From assembly GCA_005879795.1 (NCBI GenBank), contig VBKJ01000134.1, positions 2,515-66,514 on the forward strand: 64,000 nucleotides of DNA, in the 5' to 3' direction. The DNA is from Deltaproteobacteria bacterium. GTDB taxonomy: Bacteria; Desulfobacterota; Binatia; DP-6. Below, piece by piece: positions 20,471 through 35,247 of the stretch. The notes below the pieces were generated by a model, which made no database searches, was not told the origin of the DNA, and saw only the letters and a program-made list of their open reading frames with translations. The first letter of the stretch is position 1; the number at the start of each line of letters is the position of its first letter. The translations under genes were made by a program, and so were the position numbers.

Positions 20471-20850
20471 GATCCGGCTCGAGTACTACGATCGCGCCAC
20501 CCGTGACAACCTCCGCCGAGGGAGTGCTGTCCCCTCCAGACCGCGCCACGCCCGAGCGGGGATCGTTGCGGCCGGTCCCGTCTCGTGCCGCAAGGATCCC
20601 GGGCGTCTCGGCGTAGCATGGACCGCCTGACGCCGCTGAGCGGATGGAGCGTTGATGAAGGCTTTGGAACCTGGGGCGGCACGTCTGCCGACCGCGGCTT
20701 CGCCGCGGTCGGCACGACCCGAGCGCCCGAAGGGCGCGAGTCGGCCACGAGGGGGAGCCGCGCGCCCCGCGCGCGGCGACGGGGGTCCGGGGGGCATCGG
20801 AAGCGCGGAGCGCGGCGAAGCCGCGCGAGCACTGGACGGGCCCCCCGGGT

Positions 20851-22119
20851 CTAATGCCCGGCGTTCACCAGCGCCGCGACCGTGAACCAGTCGTCCGTCA
20901 CCCCCGCCTTCTCGCCCTGGTTGAAGTACCAGCCCTGCTCGCCCGGAAAACGGTGGCTCGGGAGGGAGGCCTTGGTCGCGTGCTCGAGCTGCACGTCGAC
21001 CATGACGATGGCCGGGGCGAAGATGCGCTCGTCCGGGTACTCGACGGCGCCGGGCGTGTCGAGGATCTTCCTCCGGATCATCACGTCGTTGATCCAGATC
21101 TTCCACAGCTCCCCGGCGCGATCGTACATGTCCGAGTACGGGATGCCCCACGCCTCCCTGTCGATGAAGAGGACGCGCTTGCCGAAGGCGTACTGCGAGA
21201 GCTTGGAGACGCCCTCGACGACGTGCACGCGCCGCCGCTCCCACACCTCGTCGAAGGCCCAGTCGACCCTGTCGTTCCACTGGACCGGGAAGTGCCGGCC
21301 GTGCGCCACCGCGAGCAGATCCCGCTCGCCGAGGTAGCGCCAGTCCATCCACGCGATGTGCCCCGCGTAGCCGCCGTAGCTGTCGACGTCCGTGTCCTGC
21401 CCGAAGAGCGCGTCCGAGCGCTGCGCGGTGGAGAGCCGGCGCACGCGGCGCAGCGCCGGCAGGTAGAGCCAGGCGTCGTCCTGCTTGGCAGCGTCCAGGT
21501 AGCGGTAGCTGACGAAGCCGACGCCCTTCACGTCGAAGGGCTCGAGGATCGGGTAGAGCCCCTGCTGGAGCTCGTAGCCGCTCGGGTTGGGCGCCTTCTC
21601 GGGCTTCGGGTCGACGTAGAGCCGCCCGACCCAGTAGAGGCGCCGGAAGTGATCGATCAAGAAGTGACGCTCGACCGTCATCGGGCCGTGGTCCGCGATC
21701 GCCCCGGTGTCGGCGTCGAAGTTGCGCGCATCGAGGTCGTCGGTCGCGAAGAAGTTGTGGTCGTAGTTCCACATGATCTTGACCGCGACCTGCGGGTCCT
21801 TCGCGTCGATGAAGGGGAAAGGCAGCCCCGCGACGTAGTCGCGCAGCGTCACCCCGTCGGCGGCGAGCCGCACCTGGCCCGAGTACCGCTCCGTCGCCTC
21901 CCGGTAGGCGCGCGGCCACTCGATGCGCCGGCTCTCGCCGACGGTGAGCGGGAACCCGTGCCGAACACACCACTCGAGCCCGGGCGAGATCAGCTCCCGC
22001 ACCTGCTCGACGTTCGCCTCGGTGATGCGGTCCCCCGCTGCAACGTCCGCCCGTGCTGCCCCGCCGAAGACGAGCGCCACCACGCCCGCCACGGCGACCC
22101 GCGCTGCCGGAAGCCCCAC
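20851..22119 (-). CDS. Secreted DUF1329-like family protein, paralog 1 of 4 (start uncertain, between 22119 and 22272)
   Basis: It shares ISPGLEWC..GFP, LYLPALRRVRRLSTAQRSDALFGQDTDVDSYGGY and SHRFPGEQGWYFNQGEKAG ... AALVNAGH with the three downstream paralogs. It has a signal peptide (VAVAGVVALVFGGAARA). Assignment to Pfam DUF1329 is from memory of the family. Confidence 0.6.
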   Translation of the reverse strand: MGLPAARVAVAGVVALVFGGAARADVAAGDRITEANVEQVRELISPGLEWCVRHGFPLTVGESRRIEWPRAYREATERYSGQVRLAADGVTLRDYVAGLPFPFIDAKDPQVAVKIMWNYDHNFFATDDLDARNFDADTGAIADHGPMTVERHFLIDHFRRLYWVGRLYVDPKPEKAPNPSGYELQQGLYPILEPFDVKGVGFVSYRYLDAAKQDDAWLYLPALRRVRRLSTAQRSDALFGQDTDVDSYGGYAGHIAWMDWRYLGERDLLAVAHGRHFPVQWNDRVDWAFDEVWERRRVHVVEGVSKLSQYAFGKRVLFIDREAWGIPYSDMYDRAGELWKIWINDVMIRRKILDTPGAVEYPDERIFAPAIVMVDVQLEHATKASLPSHRFPGEQGWYFNQGEKAGVTDDWFTVAALVNAGH

Positions 22120-22273
22120 TGAACGCCGGCCGCGCTGTCGCCGCGGCGCTTCATGCGGGCGCGGGGGCGCCGGCGCAGCGCCTATGAGGCGCCGAGCGCG
22201 ACGGGCGGCCAGAGCTCCGGCGCCGAGCGGCGCCGAATCGAAGCGGAGCCGGCGCCCCCGCGCCCGCAGCACG

Positions 22274-23539
22274 TCAATGCCCTGCGTTCACGAGCGCGGC
22301 CACCGTGAAGAACTCGTCGGAGATCCCTGCCTTCTCGCCCTGGTTGAAGTACCAGCCCTGCTCGCCCGGGAAGCGGTGGCTCGGGAGCGCCGCCTTGGTC
22401 GCGTGCTCGAGCTGCATGTCCACCATGACGATGGAGGGCTGGAACCCGATGTCGTCCGGGTACTCGATCACGCCCGCGCCGTCGAAGGCCTTCTTCTTGA
22501 AGCTCCAGTCGTTGATCCAGATCTTCCACAGCTCGCCCGAGCGGTCGTAGATGTCGGAGTACGGGACCACCCACGCCTCCTTGTCGATGAAGATGACGCG
22601 CTTGCCGTAGGCGTACTGCGGCAGCTTGGAGACGCCCTCCACCACCCACACCTTGCGTTTCTCCCACACGTCGTCGAAGGCCCAGTCGGTCTTGTCGTCC
22701 CACTTCACGGGGTAGTGCCGCGCGTGCATGGTGCCGAGCAGCTCGCGCTCGCCGATGAACTTCCAGGTCATCCAGGCGACGTGGCCGGCGTAGCCGTAGT
22801 AGCTGTCGACGTCGGTGTCCTGGCCGAAGAGCGCGTCCGAGCGCTGGGCGGTGGAGAGGCGGCGCACGCGGCGGAGCGAGGGCAGATAGAGCCACGAGTC
22901 GTCCTGCTTCGTGGGGTCGATGTAGCGCTGGCCGACCGCGCCCACGCCCTTCAGGTCGAACGGCTCGAGGACCGGGTAGAGCCCGAGCTGGCTCCGGTAG
23001 CCGTTCGGGTTCGGCTTCTCGGGTTTGGGGTCGACGTAGAGGCGGCCGGTCCAGAACTGCGAGCGCAGGTGGTCGAGGAGGAAGTGCCGCTCGATGCTCA
23101 TCGGGCCGTGGTCGGCGACGGCGCCCGTGTCGGCGTCGAAGTTCCGCAGATCGAGATCGTCGGTCGGGTTGAACTTGTACTCGTAGTCCCACATGATCTT
23201 GAGCGCGATCTGCGGATCCTTCGGATCCAGGTCCGGGAAAGGCTGGCCGGCGACGAAGTTCTGCACGCTGAGGCCGTCGGGCGCGAGCTTCACCTGGCCG
23301 GAGTACTTCTCGGTGGCCTCCTTGTAGGCCTTCGGCCACTCGATGCGCCTCGGCTCCACGATCGTCATCGGGAAGCCGCGCTTGATGCACCACTCCATGC
23401 CGGGCGAGATCAGGTCCTTCACCTTGTCGATGTTCTGATCGGTGATCCTGTCGCCGGGTGCGACCTCCGCGCGCGCCGCCAGCCCGAGCAGCGCGACGCC
23501 GAGCGCCACCGCGACCGCCACGCCGGGTCTTCTCGTCAT
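22274..23539 (-). CDS. Secreted DUF1329-like family protein, paralog 2
   Basis: 421 aa starting MTRRPGVAVAVALGVALLGLAARA (ATG 23539..23537 verified). It carries the same conserved blocks. The 801-aa ORF in this frame is read-through. Confidence 0.65.
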   Translation of the reverse strand: MTRRPGVAVAVALGVALLGLAARAEVAPGDRITDQNIDKVKDLISPGMEWCIKRGFPMTIVEPRRIEWPKAYKEATEKYSGQVKLAPDGLSVQNFVAGQPFPDLDPKDPQIALKIMWDYEYKFNPTDDLDLRNFDADTGAVADHGPMSIERHFLLDHLRSQFWTGRLYVDPKPEKPNPNGYRSQLGLYPVLEPFDLKGVGAVGQRYIDPTKQDDSWLYLPSLRRVRRLSTAQRSDALFGQDTDVDSYYGYAGHVAWMTWKFIGERELLGTMHARHYPVKWDDKTDWAFDDVWEKRKVWVVEGVSKLPQYAYGKRVIFIDKEAWVVPYSDIYDRSGELWKIWINDWSFKKKAFDGAGVIEYPDDIGFQPSIVMVDMQLEHATKAALPSHRFPGEQGWYFNQGEKAGISDEFFTVAALVNAGH

Positions 23540-23556
23540 CTTCGGCTCCTTCGCGA

Positions 23557-24825
23557 TCAGTGCCCCGCGTTCACGAGCGCCGCGACCGTGAACCACTCGT
23601 CGACGACGCCGGCCTTGTCGCCCTGGTGGTAGTACCAGCCCTGCTCGCCCGGGAAGCGGTGGCTCGGGAGCGCCGCCTTGGTCGCGTGCTCGAGCTGCAT
23701 GTCCACCATCACGATCGCGGGCGCGAAGGGCAGCTCGTCCTCGTACTCGAGCACCCCCGCGCCCTCGAAGGCCTTCTTGCGGAAGCCCACGTCGTTGATC
23801 CAGATCTTCCACAGCTCGCCGGAGCGGTCGTAGATGTCGGTGTAGGGGATGCCCCAGGTCTCCTTGTCGATGAAGAGCACGCGCTTGCCGTAGGCGTACT
23901 GCGGCAGCTTCGAGATGCCCTCGAGCACGTAGACGTGCCGCTTCTCCCACACCTCGTCGAAGGCCCAGTCGACCTTCTCGTGCCACTTCACCGGGTAGTG
24001 CTGCGCGTGGACGATGCCCAGCAGGTCGCGCTCGCCGAGGTACTTCCAGTCCATCCAGCCGACCTGGCCCGCATAGCCGTAGTAGCTGTCGACGTCGGTG
24101 TCCTGGCCGAAGAGCGCGTCGGAGCGCTGCGCGGTGGACAGGCGACGGACCCGCCGCAGTGACGGCAGGTAGAGCCACGAGTCGTCCTGCTTGTCCGGGG
24201 AGAGGTAGCGGTTGCCGAGCGCGCCCACGCCCTTCAGGTCGAAGGGCTCGAGCACCGGGTAGAGGCCCTGCTGCGCGCGGTAGCCGTTGGGGTTCGGCTT
24301 CTCCGGCTTGGGGTCGACGTACAGGCGCCCGTTCCAGAACAGGCGGCGGAAGTGGTCGAGGAGGAAGTGGCGCTCGATCGTCATCGGCCCATGGTCGGCG
24401 ATGGACCCGGTGTCGGCGTCGAAGTTCCGCAGGTCGGTGTCGTCGAGGCCGTTCACGTACCCGTAGTCGTAGTTGAACATGACCTTGATGACGAACTGCG
24501 GGTCCTTCGCGTCGGGATTGGGGAAGGGCTGGCCGGCGACGTAGTTCTGCATCGTGCGGCCGTCGGGCGACAGCTTCACCTGCGCGGCGTACTTCTCGGT
24601 CGCCTCCTTGTAGGCACGTGGCCACTCCACCGCCTTGGTCGCCCCGATGGTCATCGGGAAGCCGTGCTTGATGCACCACTCCATCCCGGGCGAGATCAGC
24701 TCCTTCACCTTGTCGATGTTCGCCTCGGTGATCCTGTCCCCGATCGCGACGTCGGCGCGCCCGGGCGCCGCGAGCAGCACGGGCACGACGGCGAGCGCGG
24801 CGGCGAGCCTCCGTGTCGTGGTCAT
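23557..24825 (-). CDS. Secreted DUF1329-like family protein, paralog 3
   Basis: 422 aa starting MTTTRRLAAALAVVPVLLAAPGRA (ATG 24825..24823 verified). Confidence 0.65.
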   Translation of the reverse strand: MTTTRRLAAALAVVPVLLAAPGRADVAIGDRITEANIDKVKELISPGMEWCIKHGFPMTIGATKAVEWPRAYKEATEKYAAQVKLSPDGRTMQNYVAGQPFPNPDAKDPQFVIKVMFNYDYGYVNGLDDTDLRNFDADTGSIADHGPMTIERHFLLDHFRRLFWNGRLYVDPKPEKPNPNGYRAQQGLYPVLEPFDLKGVGALGNRYLSPDKQDDSWLYLPSLRRVRRLSTAQRSDALFGQDTDVDSYYGYAGQVGWMDWKYLGERDLLGIVHAQHYPVKWHEKVDWAFDEVWEKRHVYVLEGISKLPQYAYGKRVLFIDKETWGIPYTDIYDRSGELWKIWINDVGFRKKAFEGAGVLEYEDELPFAPAIVMVDMQLEHATKAALPSHRFPGEQGWYYHQGDKAGVVDEWFTVAALVNAGH

Positions 24826-24911
24826 CGATTCGCCCTCCCTCGGCTGGAAACGCCCGGACCGCCGGCCGATCGCCTGGCGGCCCCGGGTGGCGACATCCCC
24901 GACGCTCCGCT

Positions 24912-26189
24912 CTAGTGTCCGGCGTTCACCAGCGCGGCCACCGTGAACCAGTCGTCGGTGACGCCCGCCTTCTCGCTCTGGTTGAAGTACCAGCCCTGCT
25001 CCCCCGGGAAGCGGTGGCTCGGGAGCGAGGCTTTGGTCGCATGCTCGAGCTGCATGTCCACCATGACGATCGCCGGGATGAAGCCGCGGTCCTCCCCGTA
25101 GTCGATCACGTTGGCGCCCTCGAAGGCCTTCGGGCGGAAGCTCACGTCGTTGACCCAGACCTTCCAGAGCTCGCCGGAGCGGTCGTAGATGTCGGAGTAC
25201 GGGATGATCCAGGCCTCTTTGTCGACGAAGATGACGCGCTTGCCGTAGGCGTACTGCGGGAGCTTGGAGATGCCCTCGATGACGTACACCCGGCGCTTCT
25301 CCCACGTCTCGTCGAATGCCCAGTCGACCTTGTCGTTCCACTTCACCGGGTAGTTCTTCGCGTGGTAGCAGCTCAGGAGGTCGCGATCGCCCAGGTACTT
25401 GAAGTCCATCCAGGCAATGTGGCCGCTGTAGCCGTAGTAGCTGTCGACGTCGGTGTCCTGCCCGAAGAGCGCGTCCGAGCGCTGCGCGGTGGAGAGGCGG
25501 CGCACCCGCCGGAGTGACGGCAGGTAGAGCCACGAGTCGTCCTGCTTCTCGGAGGAGATGTAGCGGTTGCCGAGCGCGCCCACGCCCTTCAAGTCGAACG
25601 GCTCGAGGATCGGGTAGAGGCCCTGCTGGGCGCGGTAGCCGTTGGGGTTCGGCTTGTCGGGCTTGGGATCGACGTAGAGCCGGCCGGTCCAGAAGAGGCG
25701 GCGGAAGTGGTCGAGCAGGAAGTGGCGCTCCACCGTGAGCGGCCCGTGGTCGGCGATCGCCCCCGTGTCGGCATCGAAGTTGCGCAGGTCGACGTCGTCG
25801 GTGGTCAGGTGGTTGTAGCTCCAGTTCCACATGATCTTGAGCGCGACCTGCGGGTCCTTGGTGTCGACGTTCGGGAAGGGCAGCCCGGCGACGTAGTTGA
25901 GGACGTTGAGACCATCGGGCGTGAGCTTCACCTGGCTCGCGTACTTCTCGGTCGCCTCCTTGTACGCCTTCGGCCACTCGACCCGCTTGGTCTCGCCGAT
26001 GGTCATCGGCCAGCCGTGCTTGATGCACCACTCCATCCCGGGCGAGATGAGATCCTTGACCTTGTCGATGTTCTGCTCGGTGATCCGGTCGCCGGGTACG
26101 ACGTCGGCGCGCGCGGTGAAGGGAAGGATCGCGAGCGCGAACGTGGCGGCGCCCGCCAGCGCCAGCCACCAGCCGGGCTTCTTCGACAT
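24912..26189 (-). CDS. Secreted DUF1329-like family protein, paralog 4
   Basis: 425 aa starting MSKKPGWWLALAGAATFALAILPFTARA (ATG 26189..26187 verified). Confidence 0.65.
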   Translation of the reverse strand: MSKKPGWWLALAGAATFALAILPFTARADVVPGDRITEQNIDKVKDLISPGMEWCIKHGWPMTIGETKRVEWPKAYKEATEKYASQVKLTPDGLNVLNYVAGLPFPNVDTKDPQVALKIMWNWSYNHLTTDDVDLRNFDADTGAIADHGPLTVERHFLLDHFRRLFWTGRLYVDPKPDKPNPNGYRAQQGLYPILEPFDLKGVGALGNRYISSEKQDDSWLYLPSLRRVRRLSTAQRSDALFGQDTDVDSYYGYSGHIAWMDFKYLGDRDLLSCYHAKNYPVKWNDKVDWAFDETWEKRRVYVIEGISKLPQYAYGKRVIFVDKEAWIIPYSDIYDRSGELWKVWVNDVSFRPKAFEGANVIDYGEDRGFIPAIVMVDMQLEHATKASLPSHRFPGEQGWYFNQSEKAGVTDDWFTVAALVNAGH

Positions 26190-26305
26190 GGTCGGCTCTC
26201 CTCTGCCGTCGCTACGGGTTGGGGGGCTCGGGGTCAGCCTGGCTCCTACCTCGCCCAATGTCCGAACGTCAACCTAGGCTGCCGTGGTTACCCCGACAGA
26301 GACTC

Positions 26306-26872
26306 CTAGCCGCCGATCGGCGCCCCCGCCTCCGCGGCCGGGACACGGTCCGCCGACAGGGCCTGGAAGATGAGATCCTCGTAGTAGCGCACGTTCCGTC
26401 CGATCAGGACCACGTCCGGGGTCCCTCGACGCCGCGCGTAAACGGCGGTGCCGGTCGGATTCGGCCCGCCGATGGTGACCTCGAGCCGGTCGCCGCTCGT
26501 GCAGACCACTTCAACCCTGGCCGCCTGCTGGCCGAGCCCGTAGGTGTCCGCGTCTGCGTCCGCCCCTCCGACGCGGGCGATCTCGGTCGCATCGGCGAGG
26601 GCGTTCGCGAACGCGGCGATCAGGTCCGGGGCGATGGGCGCCCCCGCGGGCTCGACGATCGTCCACCCCGCCCCCTCGCGCCGCGAGACGACGGTCCGGC
26701 TGCCGCGCACCAGCCGGACCTCGCGCAGCGTTGCGGGGTCCAGCCGGAGGAAGGATGGCGGCGCGGGGGCCTCCGTGCGGGCCGGCGGCTCCATACGCCC
26801 CTCGACGAACCAGTACTCGCCCGCCAGGGCGGCGAGCACGAGGTAGAGCAGCGCCACCTGCCGCCAGCGCAT
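26306..26872 (-). CDS. DUF4340-like secreted protein (accessory to GldG-type ABC systems)
   Basis: 188 aa with a signal anchor. It sits immediately downstream of GldG, as DUF4340 proteins typically do. It contains the pattern W.IVEPAGAPIAPDLIAAFANALAD. Confidence 0.4.
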   Translation of the reverse strand: MRWRQVALLYLVLAALAGEYWFVEGRMEPPARTEAPAPPSFLRLDPATLREVRLVRGSRTVVSRREGAGWTIVEPAGAPIAPDLIAAFANALADATEIARVGGADADADTYGLGQQAARVEVVCTSGDRLEVTIGGPNPTGTAVYARRRGTPDVVLIGRNVRYYEDLIFQALSADRVPAAEAGAPIGG

Positions 26873-26874
26873 GG

Positions 26875-28242
26875 TCAGCCCCGCCGCCGCCAGGCGGCGA
26901 GCGCCAGCCCGAGCGCGGCGAAGAGGGCCGGCTCGACGACGGCGGTGCCCCAGAAGATCGCGTTCCCCTGCTCGTTCGAGACGTAGAACTGCTCCACGCC
27001 GAGCTCCTGGCGCCGGGGCCGGTGCGAGAGCCCCTGCGGATCGCGCGCCAGCCAGTTGACCGTGTTCGCGAACAGATCCTTGTTGCCGAGGTACTCGATG
27101 AAGAAGTTGTTGGCGAACTCCGCGTTGCCGTAGACGATGAGGCGCCCCTGCTGCGGCTCCGCGCCCGGCGGCGTGAGGGCGCGGAAGGCGACCTCGAGCC
27201 CGACCGTCACCGGCCCGGAGCGGTCACGCCCGGCCTCGAAGGCGGGCGACCCGTGGCGCAGGACGCCCGTGTCCGTCGTCGCCCAGCTCGCCGGGCTGGT
27301 GCGCAGGAAGCCGACCGCGTTGACCGTGCCGGCGTCGTCGGGGAGCACGTTGACCGAGCGCGTGAGCGAGAAGACGGGCGGCGCGTCGAGCGGCCCCAGG
27401 ATGGGGTGATCACCGCGCGCGAAGGGGACCTGCATGGTGAGCAGCTCGCCGCCGTAGAGACGCGCCTCGGGATCGACCACCACGTCGGGCGGGAGCGAGA
27501 CGTCATAGCGGTGGAGGAAGGCGGCCAGCTCGGGCGCCCGCAGCGGGTCGAGCATGATGAGCGCCTGGCCAGGGCGCTGGAGGTAGCGGTCGAGGACGGT
27601 CAGCTCCTCGGAGAGGAAGCTCTTGCGCGGGCCGGCGATGACGAGCACGGCGGTCTCGACCGGCACGTCGTCGCCGATGAGCGACACCGGGCGGACCTCG
27701 TAGTACTCCTGCTCGAGGACCACGCGCGCGGTCGAGTAGCCCTCGCGCCGGTCCGTGCTGTTCGGGTCGCCCTCGCCGTGCCCGAGGACCCAGCCGACCG
27801 TCTTCCGCTCCTGGCGGGTCACCTGGAGGAGGGCTGCCATGAGCACTTCCTCGCGGGGGTTGGAGAACACCCGCCGGCGGCCCTCGCTCTCGACCACCAG
27901 CGCGCCGTACGAGTCGACCCCGTACTGCCGGGCCAGCGCCGGGCTGCGGTTGACGTCGAGGTACTCGACGTGCACCCGCGGGCTGCGCGCCGTCACCTGC
28001 CGGAGGAGGTCGCGGATGAAGAGGTTGCGCGGGTCCTGCGCGCGCAGGAAGGCCACGACGTGGACGTCGGCGGCGAGGCCATCCAGGATCTTGCGCCCCT
28101 GGTCGGAGAGGGTGTAGCGGCGCTCGGCTGTGAGATCGAGCCGCCACGCCCGCCGGTCGAGGATCGCCTGGCCGAGGAGGAAGATGCCGAACAGGGCCGG
28201 CACGGCCAGCACGATGCGCAGCCGCTGCGCACCGACCCTCAT
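26875..28242 (-). CDS. GldG-like ABC-transporter auxiliary (gliding-motility-associated ABC_transp_aux family) protein
   Basis: 455 aa starting MRVGAQRLRIVLAVPALFGIFLL. The ATG overlaps the permease stop (ATGA, 28239-28242). It has an N-terminal TM segment, a large periplasmic domain and a C-terminal TM segment. Confidence 0.55.
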   Translation of the reverse strand: MRVGAQRLRIVLAVPALFGIFLLGQAILDRRAWRLDLTAERRYTLSDQGRKILDGLAADVHVVAFLRAQDPRNLFIRDLLRQVTARSPRVHVEYLDVNRSPALARQYGVDSYGALVVESEGRRRVFSNPREEVLMAALLQVTRQERKTVGWVLGHGEGDPNSTDRREGYSTARVVLEQEYYEVRPVSLIGDDVPVETAVLVIAGPRKSFLSEELTVLDRYLQRPGQALIMLDPLRAPELAAFLHRYDVSLPPDVVVDPEARLYGGELLTMQVPFARGDHPILGPLDAPPVFSLTRSVNVLPDDAGTVNAVGFLRTSPASWATTDTGVLRHGSPAFEAGRDRSGPVTVGLEVAFRALTPPGAEPQQGRLIVYGNAEFANNFFIEYLGNKDLFANTVNWLARDPQGLSHRPRRQELGVEQFYVSNEQGNAIFWGTAVVEPALFAALGLALAAWRRRG

Positions 28243-28985
28243 CGCCGGCCCCGCCACTGGCGCGCCTCGAGCACGCGCAGCGTGGCCCACACGAAGAGGC
28301 CGGCCACGAAGGCGAAGTAGAAGACGTCGCGTAGCTCGACCAGCCCGACCGAGAAGGGCTGGAAGTGGTTGAAGAGCGAGATGGCGCGCACCACGGGCAG
28401 CGTCCCGGCCGCGCTGGCGGCCTCGTTCCAGGAGAGCAGCCAGAGGAGCAGGAGCGGCAGCGCGGTGAGAAACCCCGCCAGCACCTGGCTGTCGGTGAGC
28501 GAGGAGACGAACAGGCCGTACGACGCGCACGCGAGCGAGAAGAGGATGAGCCCCAGGTACCCGGCGACGAGAGGCTTCAGGGCGAAGGGCTGGACGTGGT
28601 ACACCCACGCCGGATAGACGAGCGTCCCGCCGAGGAGCGCGCCGATCACCACCAGGCAGGCGCCCAGCTTCGCGGCCACGATGGCGCGGTCGCCGAGCGG
28701 GTAGGTGAGCAGCAGCTCGAGCGTCCCGAGCCGGCGCTCCTCGGCGAGGAGGCGCATGGTGAGGAGCGGAATGGCGAAGATCAGCACCAGGCGGATGTCG
28801 ATGAGCAGGATCTGCCAGAAGTTCTCCATGATGTTCAGGCCGAAGCCGAAGGTGATGAAGTAGATGAGATCCGAGTGGAAGTAGTATCCGGTGTAGGCGA
28901 GGAAGGCGGCCGCCACGAGATAGACGAGCGGCGAGCCGAAGTAGGAGCGCAGCTCCTTGCGAAAGAGCGCGACGAAGCTCCGCAC
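28239..28985 (-). CDS. ABC-2 family transporter permease (GldF-like)
   Basis: 248 aa with 6 predicted TM segments in ABC-2 topology. Confidence 0.7.
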   Translation of the reverse strand: MRSFVALFRKELRSYFGSPLVYLVAAAFLAYTGYYFHSDLIYFITFGFGLNIMENFWQILLIDIRLVLIFAIPLLTMRLLAEERRLGTLELLLTYPLGDRAIVAAKLGACLVVIGALLGGTLVYPAWVYHVQPFALKPLVAGYLGLILFSLACASYGLFVSSLTDSQVLAGFLTALPLLLLWLLSWNEAASAAGTLPVVRAISLFNHFQPFSVGLVELRDVFYFAFVAGLFVWATLRVLEARQWRGRR

Positions 28986-28988
28986 GCT

Positions 28989-29936
28989 CTAGCTCCCGGG
29001 CCGATCCGCCGACCCGACCAGGTGGACGAACAGATCCTCGAGGGTGGGCGGGCTCGCCCGCACCTCGAGGAGCGTCCAGCCGCGCGCCACCATCGCGGCG
29101 CCGAGCGCCCGCTGCACCGGCTCGGGATCGTGCGCGAAGAGTGCGAAGGGAGTGCCCGCGAGGCCGTCCGGCCGACGGCGCTCCACCCGCACGACGCCCG
29201 GCAGCGTGCCGAGCGCGGCGGCCACCGTATCGGCGGGACCGTCCACGCGCACAGCGAGCTGTGCCAGGCCCGCCAGGCGCTGGGCCAGGCCCTCCGGCGT
29301 GTCGACCGCCACCAGCCGCCCGCGGGAGAGGATCACGATGCGCGAGCACAGGGCGGCCGCCTCGGAGAGAATGTGCGTCGAGAGGAGCATCGTACGCCCG
29401 GCGAGCGTACGCAGCAGCGCCCGCATCTCGACCGTCTGCATCGGGTCGAGGCCGACGGTCGGCTCGTCGAGCACGAGCACGTCCGCGTCCCCGACCAGCG
29501 CCTGCGCGAGCCCGACCCGCTGGCGATACCCCTTCGACAGCTTGCCGGCCAGGCGATCGGCGACCTCGGCGAGGCCGCACCGCGCGATGGCATCGGCCAC
29601 CGCGGCGCGGCGCGCGCGCCCGCCGAGCCCCTTCACCTCGGCCACGAAGGCCAGGTAGCGGCGCACCGTCAGCTCCGGATAGAGGGAGACCTGCTCGGGG
29701 AGATAGCCGATGCGCCGCCGGGCGGCCGCCGGCTGCTCGGCGACGTCCGCCCCGTCGATGCACACCCTCCCGGCGGTGGGTGGGAAGTAGCCGGTCAGCA
29801 CGCGCATCAGCGTGCTCTTGCCGCTGCCGTTCGGCCCGAGCAGCGCCGCCACCTCGCCCCGCCCGATGGTGAACGACACGTCGTCCACCGCGCAGGTCGT
29901 CCCGTAGTACTTGGTCAGGTGCTCGACGCTGATCAC
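28989..29936 (-). CDS. ABC transporter ATP-binding protein (GldA-like)
   Basis: 315 aa with a Walker A (GPNGSGKST), a signature (LSKGYRQRVGLAQAL) and a Walker B (VLVLDEPTVGLD). Confidence 0.8.
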   Translation of the reverse strand: MISVEHLTKYYGTTCAVDDVSFTIGRGEVAALLGPNGSGKSTLMRVLTGYFPPTAGRVCIDGADVAEQPAAARRRIGYLPEQVSLYPELTVRRYLAFVAEVKGLGGRARRAAVADAIARCGLAEVADRLAGKLSKGYRQRVGLAQALVGDADVLVLDEPTVGLDPMQTVEMRALLRTLAGRTMLLSTHILSEAAALCSRIVILSRGRLVAVDTPEGLAQRLAGLAQLAVRVDGPADTVAAALGTLPGVVRVERRRPDGLAGTPFALFAHDPEPVQRALGAAMVARGWTLLEVRASPPTLEDLFVHLVGSADRPGS

Positions 29937-30022
29937 GCTAATGCCGCCCGGCTCAAGGCCTCACCGCCACTCAATAGCCGCTGCGCGGAGCCGCGCAACC
30001 GCGCTCGATGATGGGCGCCGCC

Positions 30023-30185
30023 GTGCAGCGGCCGGTGTCGGCCGGGTGCCGCCGCCGCGACCTCCGCAGGCCCGCACGCGCCGGCAGCTGTGCGGGGGGA
30101 CGCTGCGGCCGACGGGCGCGCGCGTGGCCGAGGACGCGGGAGCGCCGGCGGCACGCCGCCGACGCCCCGCCGCGGCCCTCGCCTA
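30023..30185. repeat. Structured GC-rich intergenic repeat element of about 165 bp, copy B (second copy at 50600..50768)
   Basis: About 85% nucleotide identity to copy A. A shared 14-bp long-range helix shows a compensatory G-C to C-G swap between the copies. It lies inside the minus-strand operon between the RND gene and the ABC ATPase gene. Confidence 0.65.
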
Positions 30186-30321
30186 GTGCCCCACCCGCGC
30201 CGCCCCTTCGCGCTCGCGCCGCTTGCGCCGCCGCGCGTGGATGATCTCGTCCATGACGATGACGGCGATGCTGAACACCGTGACGATGATGACCGATTCC
30301 CACAGCGTCATCGCGGCCTCC

Positions 30322-33006
30322 CTAGCTGACCGCCGCGGCCTGCGCCTGGACCACCGGGCGCCGCGACGCCTTCCCCCCCTCGCGCAGGATGAAGCCGGGG
30401 CGGAAGTACGAGATCATCACCGGCAGCAGTGTCTCGGAGCAGATGAAGCTGACGCCCATCCACACCGCCAGCAGCCCGCCCATGACGGCGTTGAAGCGGA
30501 TGTTCGAGAACGTCCACAGCGCCGTGCCGCCGATCATGCAGACCGCCGTGAAGCTCACCGCCTTGCCCGAGGTCACGAGCGCCTCGCGGATGGAGAGGTC
30601 GAGGTTGTTGTTGACCCGGATCTCCTCGATGATGCGGGAGAGGATGTAGAGACCGTAGTCGATCCCGAAGCCGACGCCGACCGTGACCAGCGGGAGCGTG
30701 TTCACGTTGATGCCGATCTCGAACACCGCCATGGCTGCGTTGATGAGGATGTTCGAGATGAAGAGCGGCGCCAGGAGGTAGAGGCCGGCGACCCACGAGC
30801 GGTAGCTGAACAGGACGATGACGTAGATCGTGAAGAAGCCGAGGAAGTTCATGAGCAGGTCGTTGCGCACGAGCTCCTCGTTGGCCGCCGCGAGCACCCC
30901 GATGAGCCCGCCGGCAAGCTTGAAGGTCGCCTTCCCGTCCATGTTGTTCTCGGGCCTGGCGATGAAGTCTTTGCACTCCTGGATGATGCGCGCGATGTTG
31001 TCGCCCTTGTGGTTGCGGGCGAAGAAGGTCACGTGCGAGGTGGTGTAGCTCGGGTCCACGTACTTCGCCGTCTCGGTCGGCGGCGAGCCGGAGAAGAAGA
31101 TGAAGAAGGTCTGCGCCACGTCGCGCGAGTTGTTGGGGATGACGCCCCACTTCGGCTCGAGCTCGTGGAAGACCATGTTGACCGCACGCAGGATGTCGGT
31201 GAGCGAGAAACTGTAGCCCACGTCCCGGTCGCGCTCGAGGTAGCGCTGGAAGTTCTCCATGGTGCGCAGCACCTTGGGGTCCTTCATGGCGTCGCGGTCC
31301 TTGCCCTCGGCGACGACGATCAGAGGCTCCACTCCGCCGAACTTGTCCTGGATGTGGGCGTGGGAGACGTTGTAGGGCGAGTCGCTCCACACCAGGGGCG
31401 AGGCCGAGGTCGGGTCGCCGACGATCAGGCCGCGCATGAGGAACGCGCCCACCGCCGTCAGCCCGAGCCAGAACACCATGGTCGTCCCCTTGCCGAGCGA
31501 CGAGAGGTTCCAGTCCGTGACGCGGTTGATGAGCGCCTTGTACCACCCCTTGTCGCGCGCCAGCACGACCTCGGGGTCGGGGGCCCGCAGGTAGTAGTAC
31601 ACGATCGGGTTCAGCAGCAGCTCGGCGACGGTGATGGCGAGGATCCACCACGAGATGACGATCGCCAGGTTGCGCAGCATGACGATCGGCACGAGGATGA
31701 TGACGAGCACGCCGAGCGCGTCGGTCACCACCCCGGCGAAGGTCGGGATGAAGAGCTCGGCGAAGGCCGCCACGATCGCCTTCCGCTGGTTCCAGTCGTG
31801 GCGCTCGAACTCCTCGTAGTAGCGGTCGTGCATCTGGATGGCGTGGCTCACGGCGCGGGCCGTCACCAGGAAGGGCATCACCAGGATGAGCGGGTCGAGA
31901 GCGAAGCCGATGATGTGTACGAAGCCGAGGCCCCAGAAGGCGGCGATGAGCCCGGTGAGCGTCGGGCGCAGCGCTCCGCGCCAGTCGTGGAAGTACATCC
32001 AACGGAAGATCCACTCGAAGCAGTAGGTGACGGTGAGGATCCAGAACACGTCGCTCGCGTAGCTGTAGACCCAGCCGTAGAGGCGCGGCTCGCCGGCGAC
32101 GTACAACTCGAGGTCGGGCTCGGGGATGGTGAGCTGGGCGTCTCTGGTTTCCTCGCCGCTCTTCACGCCGAGCCTGACGGTCGTCCCGGGCTTGTACTTC
32201 TGGATCTCCGCCGCCAGCTCCACCCGGTCCGCCACCGGCTTCCCGTTGACCGACACGATGATGTCCCCCACCTTGAGCCCGGCCCTGGCCGCCGCCGTGT
32301 CGCGGTAGACGGTGTCCACCGCCGCGGCCGCCGAGGTCTCGCCCTTGAACGCGTCCCGGCCCCTGATGAGCGCACCGATCCAGCCCTTCTCGAAGGGCGC
32401 GATGACCCGCTCGTTGATCTCGGTGAAGGTGCGGCGGTGATCGAGGCGTGCTTCGATGAAGTTGGCGCGCACCAGGGCGGCCCGGTCGTCGAGCGAGACG
32501 AGGATGCCGTAGATGCTCTCGGTGTTGTGGACGATGCGCTTGATGTTGGCCGCGTCGTCTGCCGTCTTCGGCATCTGGATCATCACTGGCTCGGCCTTCA
32601 GGAACCCGCCCGCCTGGGCGCGGAGGTAGCGAGTCGTGCGGTGGCCGATCGAGTCGATCTGGTTGTGGTTCACGCCGTAGACGCGGTCCATCTCCTCCGT
32701 GATCTTGTAGATGCGATCGAGGGTCGAGACCGTGAAGATGTCGCCGTCCTTCACCTCGACCATCAGCTGGATGTTGTTGGCGCCGCCGAACGTGCCGGCG
32801 TACTTGTTGTGGACCTGGACGAAGGGGTGGCTCTGCGGGAGGAGGTCGCCGAAGCTCGTCTCGAGCTTCAGCTGGAAGCTCAGCCACGCGAAGTACCCCG
32901 TGACGATGAGCACCACGATCATGACCGGGTGGCGGTAGTCGATCAGCCGCTCGCCCAGCCAGTAGAGTGCTCGCTTGTCCTCTTCGCTCGTGGTTCCGCT
33001 GCTCAT
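30322..33006 (-). CDS. RND-superfamily (MMPL/HAE3-like) exporter with a PDZ domain inserted in the first periplasmic loop
   Basis: 894 aa in two halves of 6 TM segments each. A PDZ-like segment sits at roughly aa 225-305 (AARAGLKVGDIIVSVNGKPVADRVELAAEIQKYKPGTTVRLGV). Confidence 0.7.
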   Translation of the reverse strand: MSSGTTSEEDKRALYWLGERLIDYRHPVMIVVLIVTGYFAWLSFQLKLETSFGDLLPQSHPFVQVHNKYAGTFGGANNIQLMVEVKDGDIFTVSTLDRIYKITEEMDRVYGVNHNQIDSIGHRTTRYLRAQAGGFLKAEPVMIQMPKTADDAANIKRIVHNTESIYGILVSLDDRAALVRANFIEARLDHRRTFTEINERVIAPFEKGWIGALIRGRDAFKGETSAAAAVDTVYRDTAAARAGLKVGDIIVSVNGKPVADRVELAAEIQKYKPGTTVRLGVKSGEETRDAQLTIPEPDLELYVAGEPRLYGWVYSYASDVFWILTVTYCFEWIFRWMYFHDWRGALRPTLTGLIAAFWGLGFVHIIGFALDPLILVMPFLVTARAVSHAIQMHDRYYEEFERHDWNQRKAIVAAFAELFIPTFAGVVTDALGVLVIILVPIVMLRNLAIVISWWILAITVAELLLNPIVYYYLRAPDPEVVLARDKGWYKALINRVTDWNLSSLGKGTTMVFWLGLTAVGAFLMRGLIVGDPTSASPLVWSDSPYNVSHAHIQDKFGGVEPLIVVAEGKDRDAMKDPKVLRTMENFQRYLERDRDVGYSFSLTDILRAVNMVFHELEPKWGVIPNNSRDVAQTFFIFFSGSPPTETAKYVDPSYTTSHVTFFARNHKGDNIARIIQECKDFIARPENNMDGKATFKLAGGLIGVLAAANEELVRNDLLMNFLGFFTIYVIVLFSYRSWVAGLYLLAPLFISNILINAAMAVFEIGINVNTLPLVTVGVGFGIDYGLYILSRIIEEIRVNNNLDLSIREALVTSGKAVSFTAVCMIGGTALWTFSNIRFNAVMGGLLAVWMGVSFICSETLLPVMISYFRPGFILREGGKASRRPVVQAQAAAVS

Positions 33007-33021
33007 GGGAGTTCTCCCGTC

Positions 33022-34104
33022 TCAGCCCTGTGACGGCAGCCAGGTCTTGCCGCCGTCGGTGGTGCGATAGATCAGCCCGTATCCGCCGACGAGCCAGCCG
33101 TTCTTCTCGTCGGAGAAGCTGAGCCCGCGCAGCCAGGTGAGCACGTCCTGTCCGAGCTTGGCCCGGTGCCACGCCGTCTCGCCCGCCTGCCGCCGCACCA
33201 CCTCGCCCGCGGCGCCCACTGCCCAGCCCGCCCCGCTCGGGAGCTCGATCGGGCGGAAGAGCGGATCGACGAGTGGATAGTCGACCTCGATCTGATCGAA
33301 CGTCCACCGCTGCCCGCCGTCGTTGGTGCGCGCGATGTGTCCCTCGATGCCCGCCGCCACACCCCGCTGCGCGTCCATCATGTGCACGCCGTAGAGCGTC
33401 GGGAGGTCGAGCGGATCGAAGATCCCCGTGCCCTCCATCAGCGTCTTCTCCTGCTCGTGCCACGTCTCGCCGCCGTCCGCCGTGTGCATGATCTTGCCGA
33501 ACTCGCCCACGATCCAGCCGTTCTTCGCGTCCGTGAACTTCACGTCGTAGAGGATGGGATCGGCCGCCGCGAGGCTCTCGCCGCCGGAGATGTCGGCTTC
33601 CATTTCCACCTTGCGCGCGCGCCACGTCTTGCCCCCGTCGCTCGTCGAGGTGAGGATCGAGCGGTCGCCCGCCGCCCAGGCGTGGTCGGCGTCGAGGGCG
33701 TAGAGCGCGAAGAGGTAGAGCGGCTGCCTGGAGCCGTCCTTGTCCTCGAAGAACGCGTTCGACTCCTGCTGCTGCCAGCTCTTGCCGCCGTCGGCGGTAT
33801 GCAGGATGAGGCCGTCCTGCCCCGAGATGAAGCCGTGCTGGTCGTCGGTGAAGCGCACGGCATAGAGCGCCAGCTCGGTGCCGCTCGGACGCGCGGTCCA
33901 GCTCCGGCCACCGTCGGTCGTCTCGAGGATCTTGCCGTTGTAGCCGACGACGAAGGCGCGGTCCTTGCTGAGCGCTTGCACGTCGTAGAAGCGGTCGGTC
34001 ACGTAGATGGTGCGCTGGGCGAGCGGCACCATCTCGACCTCGTGATGGCATCCGAGCACGAGCGCGAGGAGGGTGGCCCCTCCCGGGATGATCCAGCGAC
34101 GCAT
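33022..34104 (-). CDS. Ycf48-like BNR/Asp-box repeat lipoprotein (photosystem II stability/assembly factor homolog family)
   Basis: Starts MRRWIIPGGATLLALVLGCHHE, which contains a lipobox. It has repeated T.DGG.SW/TW BNR motifs: ETTDGGRSWT, HTADGGKSWQ, STSDGGKTWR, HTADGGETWH, RTNDGGQRWT and RTTDGGKTW. Confidence 0.7.
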   Translation of the reverse strand: MRRWIIPGGATLLALVLGCHHEVEMVPLAQRTIYVTDRFYDVQALSKDRAFVVGYNGKILETTDGGRSWTARPSGTELALYAVRFTDDQHGFISGQDGLILHTADGGKSWQQQESNAFFEDKDGSRQPLYLFALYALDADHAWAAGDRSILTSTSDGGKTWRARKVEMEADISGGESLAAADPILYDVKFTDAKNGWIVGEFGKIMHTADGGETWHEQEKTLMEGTGIFDPLDLPTLYGVHMMDAQRGVAAGIEGHIARTNDGGQRWTFDQIEVDYPLVDPLFRPIELPSGAGWAVGAAGEVVRRQAGETAWHRAKLGQDVLTWLRGLSFSDEKNGWLVGGYGLIYRTTDGGKTWLPSQG

Positions 34105-34174
34105 GCGGCCCCTCCCCCGGGGCGCGGGAACCGCGTCCCGTCGACGGGCGCCTAACAGACCCTCTCTCGAGATG

Positions 34175-34654
34175 TCAATGGGACGAGCCTCCCCCGGCAT
34201 CCGCCTTAGGGAACCACTTGGAGACGTCCTTGGGCTCCACGATCACCTGGCGGTCGACCTTCCAGGCGCCATCCTCCTTGAGGAGGGTGTAGAGCTCGTA
34301 CTCGGTGAGCCCGAGCTGGTTCACGAAGCGGTCCTGGGAGGAGAGGACGTTCGGCACCCAGGCCGTGGCGCCCTCGACCTTGCCGGGATGGACATGGAAC
34401 TCGAAGATCTTGACGTCCGCGAACGCCATGCCGGTCTTCTGCTCCTTCACCCAGACCTCGCGGTCCTTCCCCTGCTTCATCGCCTTGGAGACCAGGTCGT
34501 AGGCGGCGTCGAACCTTCCGTCCTTGAGGGCCTGCAGGTACCGCCGGACGGTCTCCTCCGGCGAGAGCGGGGTGGTCTCCGCGGCTGGCACTCTCGCGGC
34601 GACGACGAGCCCGAGTGCGCCGAACGCCCACGAGAGCGAGCGCGCGCGAGGCAT
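34175..34654 (-). CDS. Secreted NTF2-like hypothetical protein
   Basis: 159 aa with a signal peptide (MPRARSLSWAFGALGLVVAARVPAAE). The motif ETVRRYLQALKDGRFDAAYDL is typical of NTF2/SnoaL-like lipoprotein families. Confidence 0.4.
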   Translation of the reverse strand: MPRARSLSWAFGALGLVVAARVPAAETTPLSPEETVRRYLQALKDGRFDAAYDLVSKAMKQGKDREVWVKEQKTGMAFADVKIFEFHVHPGKVEGATAWVPNVLSSQDRFVNQLGLTEYELYTLLKEDGAWKVDRQVIVEPKDVSKWFPKADAGGGSSH

Positions 34655-34811
34655 GTCCGCTCCCTACCACGGCCGCGTGCCGGCCGGAAGCCGGCGACGA
34701 TTCTGCATCGGAGGGACCAATTTTGCGCCGCAGCCCTCACAGCCTAGCCCGGGGAATCCGCACCGCGCTCTGCGTACGGGGGTGGCACGTCACTTGCTGC
34801 CCGGCACGGAC

Positions 34812-35039
34812 ATGGACGAGAACCCCGGCAACCTGATCCGCACGCTCCGCCAGAAGCTCAGCATGACGCAGGAAGAGTTCGCGCACGAGATCGCGGTCAC
34901 CGTCTCGACCGTGAACCGCTGGGAGAACGCGCATGCCGAGCCGAGCAAGTTGGCGTGGAAGGCGATCCACGACCTGGCGCGCAAGCGCGGGTTGACCGAG
35001 GACATCCTGCGCCTCGCGGGGGCGCTGAGCGGCGGCTGA
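34812..35039 (+). CDS. XRE-family helix-turn-helix transcriptional regulator
   Basis: 75 aa starting MDENPGNLIRTLRQKLSMTQEEFAHEIAVTVSTVNRWEN, a classic HTH_3 motif. The ATG at 34812 was verified. Confidence 0.65.
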   Translation: MDENPGNLIRTLRQKLSMTQEEFAHEIAVTVSTVNRWENAHAEPSKLAWKAIHDLARKRGLTEDILRLAGALSGG

Positions 35040-35231
35040 GCGGCCGGGCCTGCGACCCAGAGAGGCGAGATTTGAACGCCGCAGTCAATCGCATGACGCC
35101 GCCGGCGCTCCCACCTCGCGCCGCACCGCGGGCCGCGCGCGCCCGCCGCCCGGGGGATGTGCCGCGGCCGTGCTCGCCTTTTCCACCCCGCGTGTCAGAA
35201 GTGCCCGTGTCGGGGCGCCGCGGCGGCCGGC

Positions 35232-35247
35232 CGGCACGCCCTTTGCG
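35232..35247 (+). promoter_or_regulatory. Candidate σ54 (RpoN) -24/-12 promoter, cGGCACGcccTTTGCg
   Basis: The GG and GC dinucleotides are spaced exactly as in the consensus TGGCACG-N4-TTGCW. It lies about 60 bp upstream of the σ54-dependent regulator gene at 35309. Confidence 0.4.

Follow-up and report, generated by a model that had tools for sequence, protein, structure and literature searches.

We analysed a 64,000-nucleotide (64-kb) stretch of contig VBKJ01000134.1 (assembly GCA_005879795.1, a Deltaproteobacteria bacterium of the Binatia), hereafter the window, with a focus on the minus-strand genes at positions 20851 to 34654. These genes encode a resistance-nodulation-division (RND) transporter with an inserted PDZ domain, a second transporter of the ATP-binding cassette (ABC) type, and several periplasmic proteins. 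A reading of the sequence alone, made without database searches and referred to below as the sequence-only reading, had described them as twelve consecutive genes for a candidate undescribed envelope lipid or lipoprotein export system. A frame plot of GC content at third codon positions (GC3), together with the translations, bore out unbroken coding by twelve co-directional genes from 34654 down to 20851. The GC content of the window is approximately 71%, with a GC3 of approximately 96% in the genome, and spurious frames crowd the raw lists of open reading frames (ORFs). Gene coordinates were set by inspecting start codons and ribosome-binding sites. Intergenic gaps, in order of transcription, were 70, 15, 10, 246, 3, -4, 2, 116, 86, 17, and 154 nt. 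Several ATGA overlaps had been claimed; only one was found within the twelve genes, between the stop codon of the ABC-2 permease gene and the start codon of the GldG-like gene. Two further 4-nt start/stop overlaps (ATGA and TTGA) are located in the downstream beta-oxidation genes. The twelfth gene proved to be that of a 42-amino-acid microprotein. Another candidate for this place, a 110-codon ORF at 29971-30303 (minus strand), was rejected: it is rich in arginine codons, has no Pfam match, and overlaps the conserved microprotein ORF in a different frame. It is an artefact of GC-rich sequence and probably what the sequence-only reading had counted as a gene. Scans for sigma-70 promoters and terminators over 15000-34900 returned matches at chance level. 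The flanks are formed by housekeeping genes (leuS, nusB, rib genes, lptE, and lgt) and therefore do not suggest a mobile-element origin. Taken with these genes, the window is an ordinary piece of chromosome. Since LptE and Lgt indicate a diderm with lipopolysaccharide (LPS) and lipoproteins, there is a periplasm to be crossed.

Searches against Pfam and NCBIfam confirmed the domains that had been named from the sequence: four copies of DUF1329, DUF4340, ABC_transp_aux, ABC-2, ABC ATPase, MMPL, PDZ, and a Ycf48-like propeller. The first gene of the operon (34175-34654, minus strand, as all genes of the operon) encodes a small alpha+beta protein of 159 amino acids with a Sec signal. Its only Pfam match, to MecA_N, was weak and below the cutoff (E = 1e-3). 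The same weak match was obtained for all 40 family members scanned, 11 of which also matched DUF4878, the name given by NCBI to one homologue. Its AlphaFold2 model was poor (pLDDT of 54), and a Foldseek search with this model returned nothing at E ≤ 1e-3, with MlaC/Ttg2D and NTF2-like proteins heading the list. The product is thus probably NTF2-like (DUF4878/MecA_N-like), as had been proposed. Its supposed nature as a lipoprotein did not hold: the protein has no lipobox and contains no cysteine, and is therefore expected to be soluble in the periplasm. The protein is identical to a hypothetical protein from a metagenome-assembled genome of a "Deltaproteobacteria bacterium" and also occurs on soil-metagenome contigs; JGI samples with identical contigs include 3300026537 and 3300026327. 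The second gene (33022-34104) encodes a BNR protein (PSII_BNR, E = 1e-42) that does carry a lipobox, LVLGC, which contains its sole cysteine. It matched the Ycf48 model NF010237 with E = 2.7e-43, below the cutoff of that model, and the Ycf48/HCF136 structures in the PDB with E values of 1e-13 to 7e-19. By these similarities, it is a Ycf48-like seven-bladed propeller lipoprotein, equivalent to AmeC and PP_2018 (COG4447).

The RND protein (30322-33006) has 894 amino acids and 12 transmembrane (TM) helices and is of the HAE3/MMPL type (MMPL, 2e-16; PDZ_2, 6e-12). TIGR00921 (HAE3) was its best RND model at E = 5e-30, under the trusted cutoff, and the scores for the HpnN models TIGR03480 (51 bits; cutoff, 752) and NF052374 (27 bits; cutoff, 1100) were far lower than required. 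Its AlphaFold2 model, with a mean pLDDT of 72 and 12 TM helices, was most confident in the PDZ block (approximately 90). The best Foldseek matches of the model were MmpL4/5, MmpL3, NPC1/Patched, and HpnN, with TM-scores of 0.55 to 0.74 and 10 to 14% identity in the structural alignments. According to an alignment with PDZ-less paralogs, the PDZ insertion spans approximately amino acids 206 to 300 (nt 32107-32391) and lies in periplasmic domain 1, before its last strand and TM2. The PDZ domain is the least conserved part of the transporter, and its conserved residues, judged by eye, do not include the canonical carboxylate-binding loop. Exact-sequence look-ups of the RND protein and of the cluster representative 100% identical to it returned no record. 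In a search of 1.84 billion representative sequences, the RND protein had 746 matches at E ≤ 1e-30. Most of them are 770 to 800 amino acids long, and such typical members are approximately 28 to 38% identical to the RND protein. PDZ-bearing forms look like a small minority, judging from length, because most of the best 150 of the 746 matches are too short to hold the insert. Our literature search found no published description of a PDZ-inserted RND transporter. The nearest named relatives of both the RND and the GldG-like protein belong to Candidatus Binatia.

A scan with the RND protein, using one genome per species, yielded 64 loci (designated by L numbers), onto which the window proteins were mapped by tblastn. 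Alignment of the RND proteins across the loci revealed a family with four states: the PDZ domain at the position found in the window (PDZ-A), a second PDZ-like insertion of approximately 100 amino acids at the pseudo-symmetric position before TM8 (PDZ-B; for example, L044, L045, L049, and L051), both (for example, L016, L020, L022, and L046), or neither. The neighbouring genes followed these states. PDZ-A alone was present in 18 loci, and each of the 16 with enough flanking sequence had a BNR gene upstream and the ABC-2/GldG/DUF4340 genes downstream. For the 14 loci with PDZ-B alone, the corresponding numbers were 14/14 for BNR and 8/13, where flank was available, for the ABC module. Both insertions were found in five loci, with BNR and the ABC module in two of five each, and neither gene set accompanied any of the 21 loci without a PDZ domain. 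Taken together, a BNR gene is adjacent in 32/35 PDZ-bearing loci versus 0/21 PDZ-less loci, and the ABC module is present in 26/34 PDZ-bearing loci with enough flank versus 0/21. Presence of the PDZ domain also tracks the NTF2-like gene, which is located upstream of BNR in most PDZ-bearing loci. The context of the PDZ-less RND paralog is unrelated, comprising genes for an acyl-CoA dehydrogenase, TerC, and a TonB receptor.

The microprotein gene (30183-30311) starts 10 nt past the RND stop codon and is preceded by a GGGAGG ribosome-binding site. Its product, MTLWESVIIVTVFSIAVIVMDEIIHARRRKRREREGAARVGH, is a single-pass membrane protein. A homologous ORF of 42 to 61 codons with one TM segment directly follows the RND gene in approximately 55 loci, covering all four PDZ states, and the JGI annotation of another contig calls this gene independently. 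The family shares the motif ...FS..V....DE, in which the conserved DE is positioned right behind the TM segment. By analogy with other small membrane partners, the microprotein is probably an obligate subunit of this RND subfamily. The MmpS-MmpL and AcrZ-AcrB pairs likewise combine an RND transporter with a small membrane protein, a parallel that concerns only their size and the position of their genes. In every clade (L016-L058; for example, L045:12905-13192) but the PDZ-A Binatia clade to which the window belongs, the gene of a further small membrane protein, approximately 90 amino acids long, comes after that of the microprotein. The counterpart of this gene position in the window is the 246-nt noncoding gap at 29937-30182.

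The next four genes encode a GldA/DrrA-type ABC ATPase (28989-29936; ABC_tran, 7e-35), a GldF-type ABC-2 permease with six TM segments (28239-28985; ABC2_membrane_2/3 and TM scan), a GldG-like auxiliary protein (26875-28242; ABC_transp_aux, 1.3e-21; DUF7088, 3e-9), and a DUF4340 protein composed of an N-terminal TM anchor and a periplasmic domain (26306-26872; DUF4340, 9e-11, and TM scan). The GldG-like protein is anchored by TM segments at its N and C termini and exposes a large periplasmic DUF7088 plus ABC_transp_aux/GIFT domain. The ATPase is cytoplasmic, which contradicts the earlier statement that every component is secreted or membrane embedded. As in GldA, GldF, and GldG of Bacteroidota, an ATPase and an ABC-2 permease are combined with a bitopic GldG-like protein, and the Gld models were the best NCBIfam matches: TIGR03522 (GldA) at 7.9e-79 and 265 bits, TIGR03518 (GldF) at 4.6e-34 and 118.5 bits over the full length, and TIGR03521 (GldG) at 4.8e-15 and 55 bits. 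All three scores, however, are far under the equivalog cutoffs of 402.6, 288.5, and 389.9 bits, respectively. Unlike GldAFG, the module does not belong to a member of the Bacteroidota; the related genomes are labelled Binatia, Deltaproteobacteria, or Myxococcales. No other gld or type IX secretion system families were detected among the scanned window genes. Judged from these scores, the three proteins share a homologous architecture with GldAFG without being its equivalogs. To our knowledge, no function has been established for GldAFG itself. In related loci, the DUF4340 gene always follows the GldG-like gene. Sequence searches found no relative of solved structure for the ABC-2 permease or the GldG-like protein, and among the matches listed in a homologue search with the latter, there were only Binatia-like relatives of at least 65% identity. 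The published mentions of DUF4340 that we found appear to come from unrelated genome surveys.

The operon ends with four DUF1329 genes, numbered here from the distal end: paralog 4 (24912-26189; DUF1329, 2.9e-54; LolA_like, 6e-20), paralog 3 (23557-24825; 77% identity to paralog 4), paralog 2 (22274-23539; 75 to 76% identity to paralogs 3 and 4), and paralog 1 (20851-22119; DUF1329, 2.1e-50), which is the most diverged. Each product is approximately 420 amino acids long and has a Sec signal. The two copies scanned matched DUF1329 with E values of 2e-50 to 3e-54 and LolA_like in addition, and the C-terminal half matched PDB entries 3bk5, 9tp6, and 4z48, which are LolA-like "outer membrane lipoprotein-sorting" proteins. 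The paralogs are mutually 69 to 77% identical in protein, 77 to 83% in nucleotide sequence, and 68 to 75% at third codon positions. The low nucleotide identity rules out recent tandem duplication or gene conversion. As the paralogs are as distant from each other as from the orthologues of other species, sequence divergence marks them as old, retained duplicates, an age that fits specialised carriers. Paralog 4, with 80 to 81% identity to the proteins of L002, L010, L033, L035, and L038, is the orthologue of the first-position DUF1329 in related loci. The nearest relative of paralog 3 is the surviving full-length second-position copy in L004 (80%). Paralog 1 is 70% identical to the remaining paralogs and has the conserved C-terminal tail WFTVAALVNAGH. 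This tail, WFTVAALV[NAS]AG[HR], is essentially invariant in operon-linked DUF1329 proteins; a distant DUF1329 protein encoded upstream in L001 does not have it.

In-operon DUF1329 genes are confined to the PDZ-A Binatia clade, where one or two copies are the rule and the window holds the maximum of four. The fourfold expansion that had been noted is thus real here but particular to the lineage of the window, the species-representative genomes having zero to two in-operon copies. The association between PDZ-A and DUF1329 could simply reflect shared ancestry. No DUF1329 gene, of this or a second kind, was found within 10 kb of the RND gene in PDZ-B loci. Three more distant loci, one with PDZ-A (L013:13188-13979) and two with PDZ-B (L045:13167-13991 and L053:13280-14041), encode a lipoprotein of 250 to 275 amino acids with a weak DUF3108-like match; its gene comes after the small genes that accompany RND and before that of the ABC ATPase. 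In loci that lack DUF1329, this lipoprotein could serve as the carrier instead.

Across genomes, the genes occur in a conserved order: NTF2-like, BNR, RND, microprotein, ABC ATPase, ABC-2 permease, GldG-like, DUF4340, DUF1329, CoA-transferase III, thiolase-like/DUF35, acyl-CoA dehydrogenase, and MaoC. With small variations, this order was found in at least 16 species-level genomes labelled Binatia or "Deltaproteobacteria" (e.g., L001 to L005, L007, L008, L010, L014, L015, L035, L038, and L040), so that the set is not a peculiarity of one genome. An independent Pfam-annotated Binatia contig (L001) displayed the same order, and the operon order was kept down to 60 to 64% RND identity (L013, L020, L022, and L044). 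Chance is far from sufficient to explain an arrangement that is found again in so many genomes independently. This synteny also supports the view that two membrane transporters, a propeller, and LolA-like periplasmic proteins form one conserved unit.

Downstream of the DUF1329 genes, and separated from them by a 380-nt gap, a co-directional module of six catabolic genes extends over 15087-20470 (minus strand). According to Pfam, it encodes a family III coenzyme A (CoA) transferase (19340-20470), a KAS-III/thiolase-like protein fused to a ChsH2-type zinc ribbon plus OB fold (DUF35), an acyl-CoA dehydrogenase, two MaoC/hot-dog hydratase subunits, and a short-chain dehydrogenase/reductase (SDR). 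Together, these enzymes would provide a complete beta-oxidation-type cycle for bulky acyl groups, an assignment that leans on the established Bbs and Chs pathways. The same catabolic genes also follow DUF1329 in L001, L002, L004, L005, L007, L008, L010, L014, L015, L038, and L040, and this synteny is kept across genomes in which the RND protein is just 75 to 86% identical. The window contains two separate thiolase-like/DUF35 units, both on the minus strand. In the unit at 17932-19392, a KAS-III-like domain is fused to the ChsH2 zinc ribbon and OB fold, and the unit at 40532-42115 consists of an SCP-x-type thiolase and a separate OB-fold protein, followed by an SDR. The pair fits a region rich in bulky-acyl-CoA metabolism.

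A divergent regulatory unit (34783-36700, plus strand) precedes the operon. It comprises a sigma-54 promoter (34783-34798), an HTH_3/XRE gene (34812-35039), and a gene for an NtrC-type sigma-54 activator with a receiver domain (35309-36700), as assigned by Pfam and by the annotations of L001 and L066. The promoter, TGGCACGTCACTTGCT, is of the -24/-12 type and is the only zero-mismatch sigma-54 promoter of the window. It ends 13 nt before the HTH_3 start codon, so the HTH_3 transcript would be nearly leaderless. A sigma-54 promoter upstream of the helix-turn-helix (HTH) gene is kept in 14/15 orthologous loci, and the divergent pair of HTH_3 and sigma-54 activator genes is always present in loci with the conserved order. 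The consensus search found no sigma-54 site facing the transporter operon; the sole perfect site faces the regulator gene. Between species, the divergent intergenic region (34655-34811) shows blockwise conservation, which extends to an imperfect palindrome at 34693-34709 (consensus of the orthologues, GGTGAAGATTCGTCACC). This palindrome could be an operator for the HTH or the sigma-54 regulator.

The core of this operon, DUF1329 plus BNR plus an HAE3-type RND transporter, is already described in Proteobacteria and is tied there to the use or tolerance of hydrophobic substrates. Genes for DUF1302, DUF1329, BNR (COG4447), and HAE3-RND (COG1033) proteins are cofit in Shewanella, Kangiella, and Pseudomonas, for which Price et al. 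proposed export of a cell wall component. In Castellaniella defragrans, AmeABCD is encoded in a monoterpene island. Transposon insertion in ameB lowered growth on monoterpenes, and deletion of ameABCD decreased monoterpene tolerance and increased Nile Red accumulation, which was read as the phenotype of an efflux/tolerance system. Pseudomonas putida requires PP_0765/0766 and PP_2018/2019 to grow on Tween 20 and butyl stearate, and an AlphaFold prediction for this species docks DUF1329 on the DUF1302 barrel and on the BNR plus RND pair. Comparative genomics placed the cassette of Betaproteobacteria in sigma-54 XylR/DmpR-type aromatic regulons, among solvent stress genes. Delftia grows less well on phenanthrene when a DUF1329 gene is deleted. 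The benzene degrader ORM2a has a DUF1329/YCF48/MMPL "Nanopod" cluster that ranks with its most highly expressed loci and is highly expressed while hydrocarbon is degraded. The statement in the sequence-only reading that DUF1329 and BNR genes adjoin HAE3-type RND genes in pseudomonads thus agrees with the literature. Its label of an undescribed system applies to the variant but not to the core, which has been published as AmeABCD, as a cofitness cluster, as a predicted transport complex, as a member of a sigma-54 regulon, and as the ORM2a cluster.

What looks new at this locus is the ABC-2/GldG/DUF4340 module between the RND gene and the carriers, the PDZ domain at either of two RND sites, the absence of a DUF1302 gene, and the four old carrier paralogs. 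The published reports on the core cassette contain no mention of an ABC-2/GldG/DUF4340 module, a PDZ domain, a microprotein, or an expansion of carriers. The suggestion that the GldG-type ABC module is new to this set held as well, as we found no description of it joined to DUF1329, BNR, and RND genes. Compared with the AmeABCD-type cassettes (including Shewanella Sama_1588-1591), the operon shares the HAE3-type 12-TM RND protein, the adjacent Ycf48-like propeller, the secreted LolA-like DUF1329 protein, and a genomic link to hydrophobic-substrate catabolism and sigma-54-type regulation. It differs by the lack of a DUF1302 barrel, the PDZ-bearing RND protein, and four DUF1329 genes instead of one, and it adds the NTF2-like protein, the microprotein, and the complete ABC-2/GldG/DUF4340 module. 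No DUF1302 match was obtained for any scanned window gene or in the annotated orthologous locus L001, although a copy may lie elsewhere in the genome. The cluster of ORM2a (Desulfobacterota; from a methanogenic benzene culture) is alike in combining DUF1329, YCF48-related, and MMPL genes in a former deltaproteobacterium with no canonical DUF1302 annotation. Unlike the window, it includes a porin-like hypothetical protein and a universal stress protein, and none of the ABC-2/GldG/DUF4340 module, PDZ domain, or carrier expansion has been reported for it. The Marinobacter AupA/AupB pair was dropped as a DUF1302/DUF1329 comparison, since AupA is FadL-like.

The match of the RND fold to lipid transporters and that of DUF1329 to LolA-like structures are most reasonably read as pointing to a hydrophobic cargo that crosses the periplasm. 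In this respect, the trans-envelope conduit for hydrophobic cargo that had been suggested is plausible; its outward direction was not supported. We tentatively favour a substrate-inducible system that moves hydrophobic molecules across the periplasm, with net inward delivery, and serves the downstream acyl-CoA catabolic module. Complex formation, the carrier function, the identity of the cargo, its direction, and a docking role of the PDZ domain are what we infer here. The four soluble LolA-like DUF1329 carriers, with slightly different pockets, would ferry hydrophobic molecules between the outer membrane and a platform in the inner membrane. This platform would consist of the HAE3-type RND protein, the 42-amino-acid microprotein, the Ycf48-like propeller lipoprotein, and the NTF2-like protein, and by analogy with the P. 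putida prediction, the carriers may dock on its RND/BNR part. The GldA/F/G-like ABC-2 transporter and the DUF4340 protein could form a second engine, powered by ATP, for loading or stripping the carriers at the inner membrane. We regard the ABC module as a likely part of the machine because its genes stand between those for RND/BNR and those for DUF1329, an established partner of RND/BNR, and because it tracks the PDZ-bearing RND protein. The cargo may be a hydrophobic carboxylic acid or ester; the family III CoA-transferase would activate it with CoA, and its degradation would fall to the dehydrogenase, hydratase, SDR, and thiolase-like enzymes. The conserved linkage to these enzymes and the inducible sigma-54 regulator argue for handling of a growth substrate rather than envelope biogenesis. 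By analogy, the HTH and sigma-54 pair resembles the sigma-54 aromatic catabolism regulons that hold the proteobacterial cassette. Our lean toward inward transport is based on phenotypes elsewhere that involve poorly soluble substrates of low toxicity and on the CoA-transferase, which implies an incoming free acid.

A more specific proposal is that the PDZ-bearing HAE3 RND protein, microprotein, propeller, NTF2-like protein, and GldG-type ABC-2 transporter constitute an unrecognised two-engine machine, driven by proton motive force and ATP. In such a machine, the PDZ domain would dock periplasmic partners, with the DUF1329 tail as one candidate, and the ABC module would serve as a mechanotransducer for loading or unloading the carriers. 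We think it rather unlikely that this holds in full.

Several observations weigh against inward delivery by a single machine. Both engine classes normally act outward, as exemplified by HpnN, MmpL3, and AmeD for RND transporters and by ABC-2 exporters, and AmeABCD itself was interpreted from experiments as an efflux/tolerance system. Neither the operon nor the 64-kb window encodes an outer membrane partner of the DUF1302 or FadL-like kind or another obvious barrel partner. The modules are separable, since 5/13 PDZ-B loci have no ABC module and all PDZ-B loci are without DUF1329 within 10 kb. The host organism, moreover, is uncultured.

The outward-acting nature of both engines leads directly to a close rival. 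An AmeABCD-type efflux/solvent tolerance pump could expel excess toxic substrate of the neighbouring enzymes, with the ABC-2 transporter clearing the inner leaflet, the RND protein clearing the outer leaflet, and DUF1329 carrying the substrate to the outer membrane. Efflux pumps often adjoin catabolic genes for toxic substrates, which we counted in favour of this alternative, as we did the lowered tolerance and higher Nile Red accumulation of the ameABCD deletion and the position of the cassette among solvent stress genes of aromatic regulons. The phenotypes of P. putida and Delftia, however, were obtained with butyl stearate, Tween 20, and phenanthrene, which are poorly soluble and of low toxicity, and fit acquisition better. 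Four diverged carriers of a high-affinity type would be unusual in a simple efflux pump, and no outer membrane exit channel is encoded in the window. We therefore regard efflux as possible but somewhat doubtful. As a further alternative, an RND/BNR/NTF2-like/DUF1329 unit and an unrelated ABC-2/GldG/DUF4340 exporter might merely share an operon, as the ABC ATPase, ABC-2, ABC_transp_aux, and DUF4340 genes form a self-standing four-gene module elsewhere. Between the microprotein and ABC ATPase genes lies a gap of 246 nt, and five PDZ-B loci and two loci with both PDZ insertions, all with adequate flank, keep the RND protein and small proteins without the ABC module, the five also retaining BNR. 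This is difficult to reconcile with the position of the module between RND/BNR and DUF1329, which are established partners in other bacteria, with its distribution over PDZ-bearing and PDZ-less loci, and with an order preserved down to 60 to 64% RND identity. Two independent systems thus appear improbable.

Constitutive biogenesis, in which an envelope lipid or lipoproteins would be exported from the inner to the outer membrane as by HpnN, MmpL3, or Lol, comes closest to the function suggested by the sequence-only reading. The RND fold is indeed nearest to the lipid exporters MmpL3/4/5 and HpnN, the carriers are LolA-like in fold, an Mla-like system is encoded nearby, and Price et al. proposed export of a cell wall component for the proteobacterial cluster. 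With HpnN and MmpL3, the RND protein shares the predicted RND lipid transporter fold, but scores for the HpnN and MmpL3 models are far under their cutoffs, and no hopanoid, mycolate, or hpn genes are located nearby. Instead of lipid-biosynthetic genes, the conserved neighbours encode catabolic acyl-CoA enzymes, and a dedicated sigma-54 regulator pair suggests conditional expression. The system is also absent from many related genomes, in which the PDZ-less RND paralog stands alone. With the Mla and Lol shuttles, the operon has in common an energised inner membrane complex and a soluble periplasmic carrier with a hydrophobic pocket, here of LolA-like fold, and possibly, for the first gene, the MlaC-like NTF2 fold. 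In contrast to MlaFEDB or LolCDE, its engines are of the RND and ABC-2 types, there is no MCE domain, and the carriers are DUF1329/LolA_like proteins rather than LolA or LolB. Lipoprotein export in particular found no support; neither a LolCDE-type (FtsX) permease nor LolB is present. We consider envelope biogenesis improbable.

Three families for which a mechanism is still lacking meet in the operon, namely, the DUF1329/BNR/HAE3-RND cassette, the GldG/DUF4340 ABC-2 transporters, and the nonphotosynthetic Ycf48-like propellers. If true, the two-engine machine would give the widespread, functionless GldG/DUF4340 ABC family its first mechanistic context. The operon offers a comparative handle on how very hydrophobic substrates transit the periplasm of diderms, an open point in hydrocarbon, terpene, and lipid degradation. 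It also suggests specific partner pairs, in which the PDZ domain would go with the carrier tail, the RND protein with its microprotein, and GldG/DUF4340 with DUF1329. For Binatia, a soil lineage that is abundant and uncultured, it gives a hint of physiology.

Other features of the window were recorded alongside the operon. The Mla-like lipid ABC set (8928-15077, plus strand) contains MlaE (10303-11118), an ABC ATPase at the MlaF position (13333-14100), and MlaD (14019-15077), and is interrupted by a gene for an Lcl_C-domain protein (11950-12939). A secreted, aromatic-rich protein of 461 amino acids with no Pfam match (8928-10313) precedes MlaE and could be an outer membrane protein. Behind the sigma-54 activator gene, four plus-strand genes at 36697-40160 encode two ATPases, one ParA/BcsQ-like with a degenerate receiver domain and the other of the CpaF/T2SSE type, as well as a stand-alone response regulator and an aspartyl protease of retropepsin-like type; the set includes no pilus genes and is partly absent from L001. 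A protein with an MpaB/Lcp (rubber oxygenase-like) catalytic domain is encoded at 46008-46898 (minus strand), and a two-subunit 2-oxoacid:ferredoxin oxidoreductase is encoded at 47678-50556 (plus strand). At the start of the window, positions 35-1903 (plus strand) encode a protein of 622 amino acids that has both a PDZ domain and, at its C terminus, a thioredoxin/AhpC-like domain.

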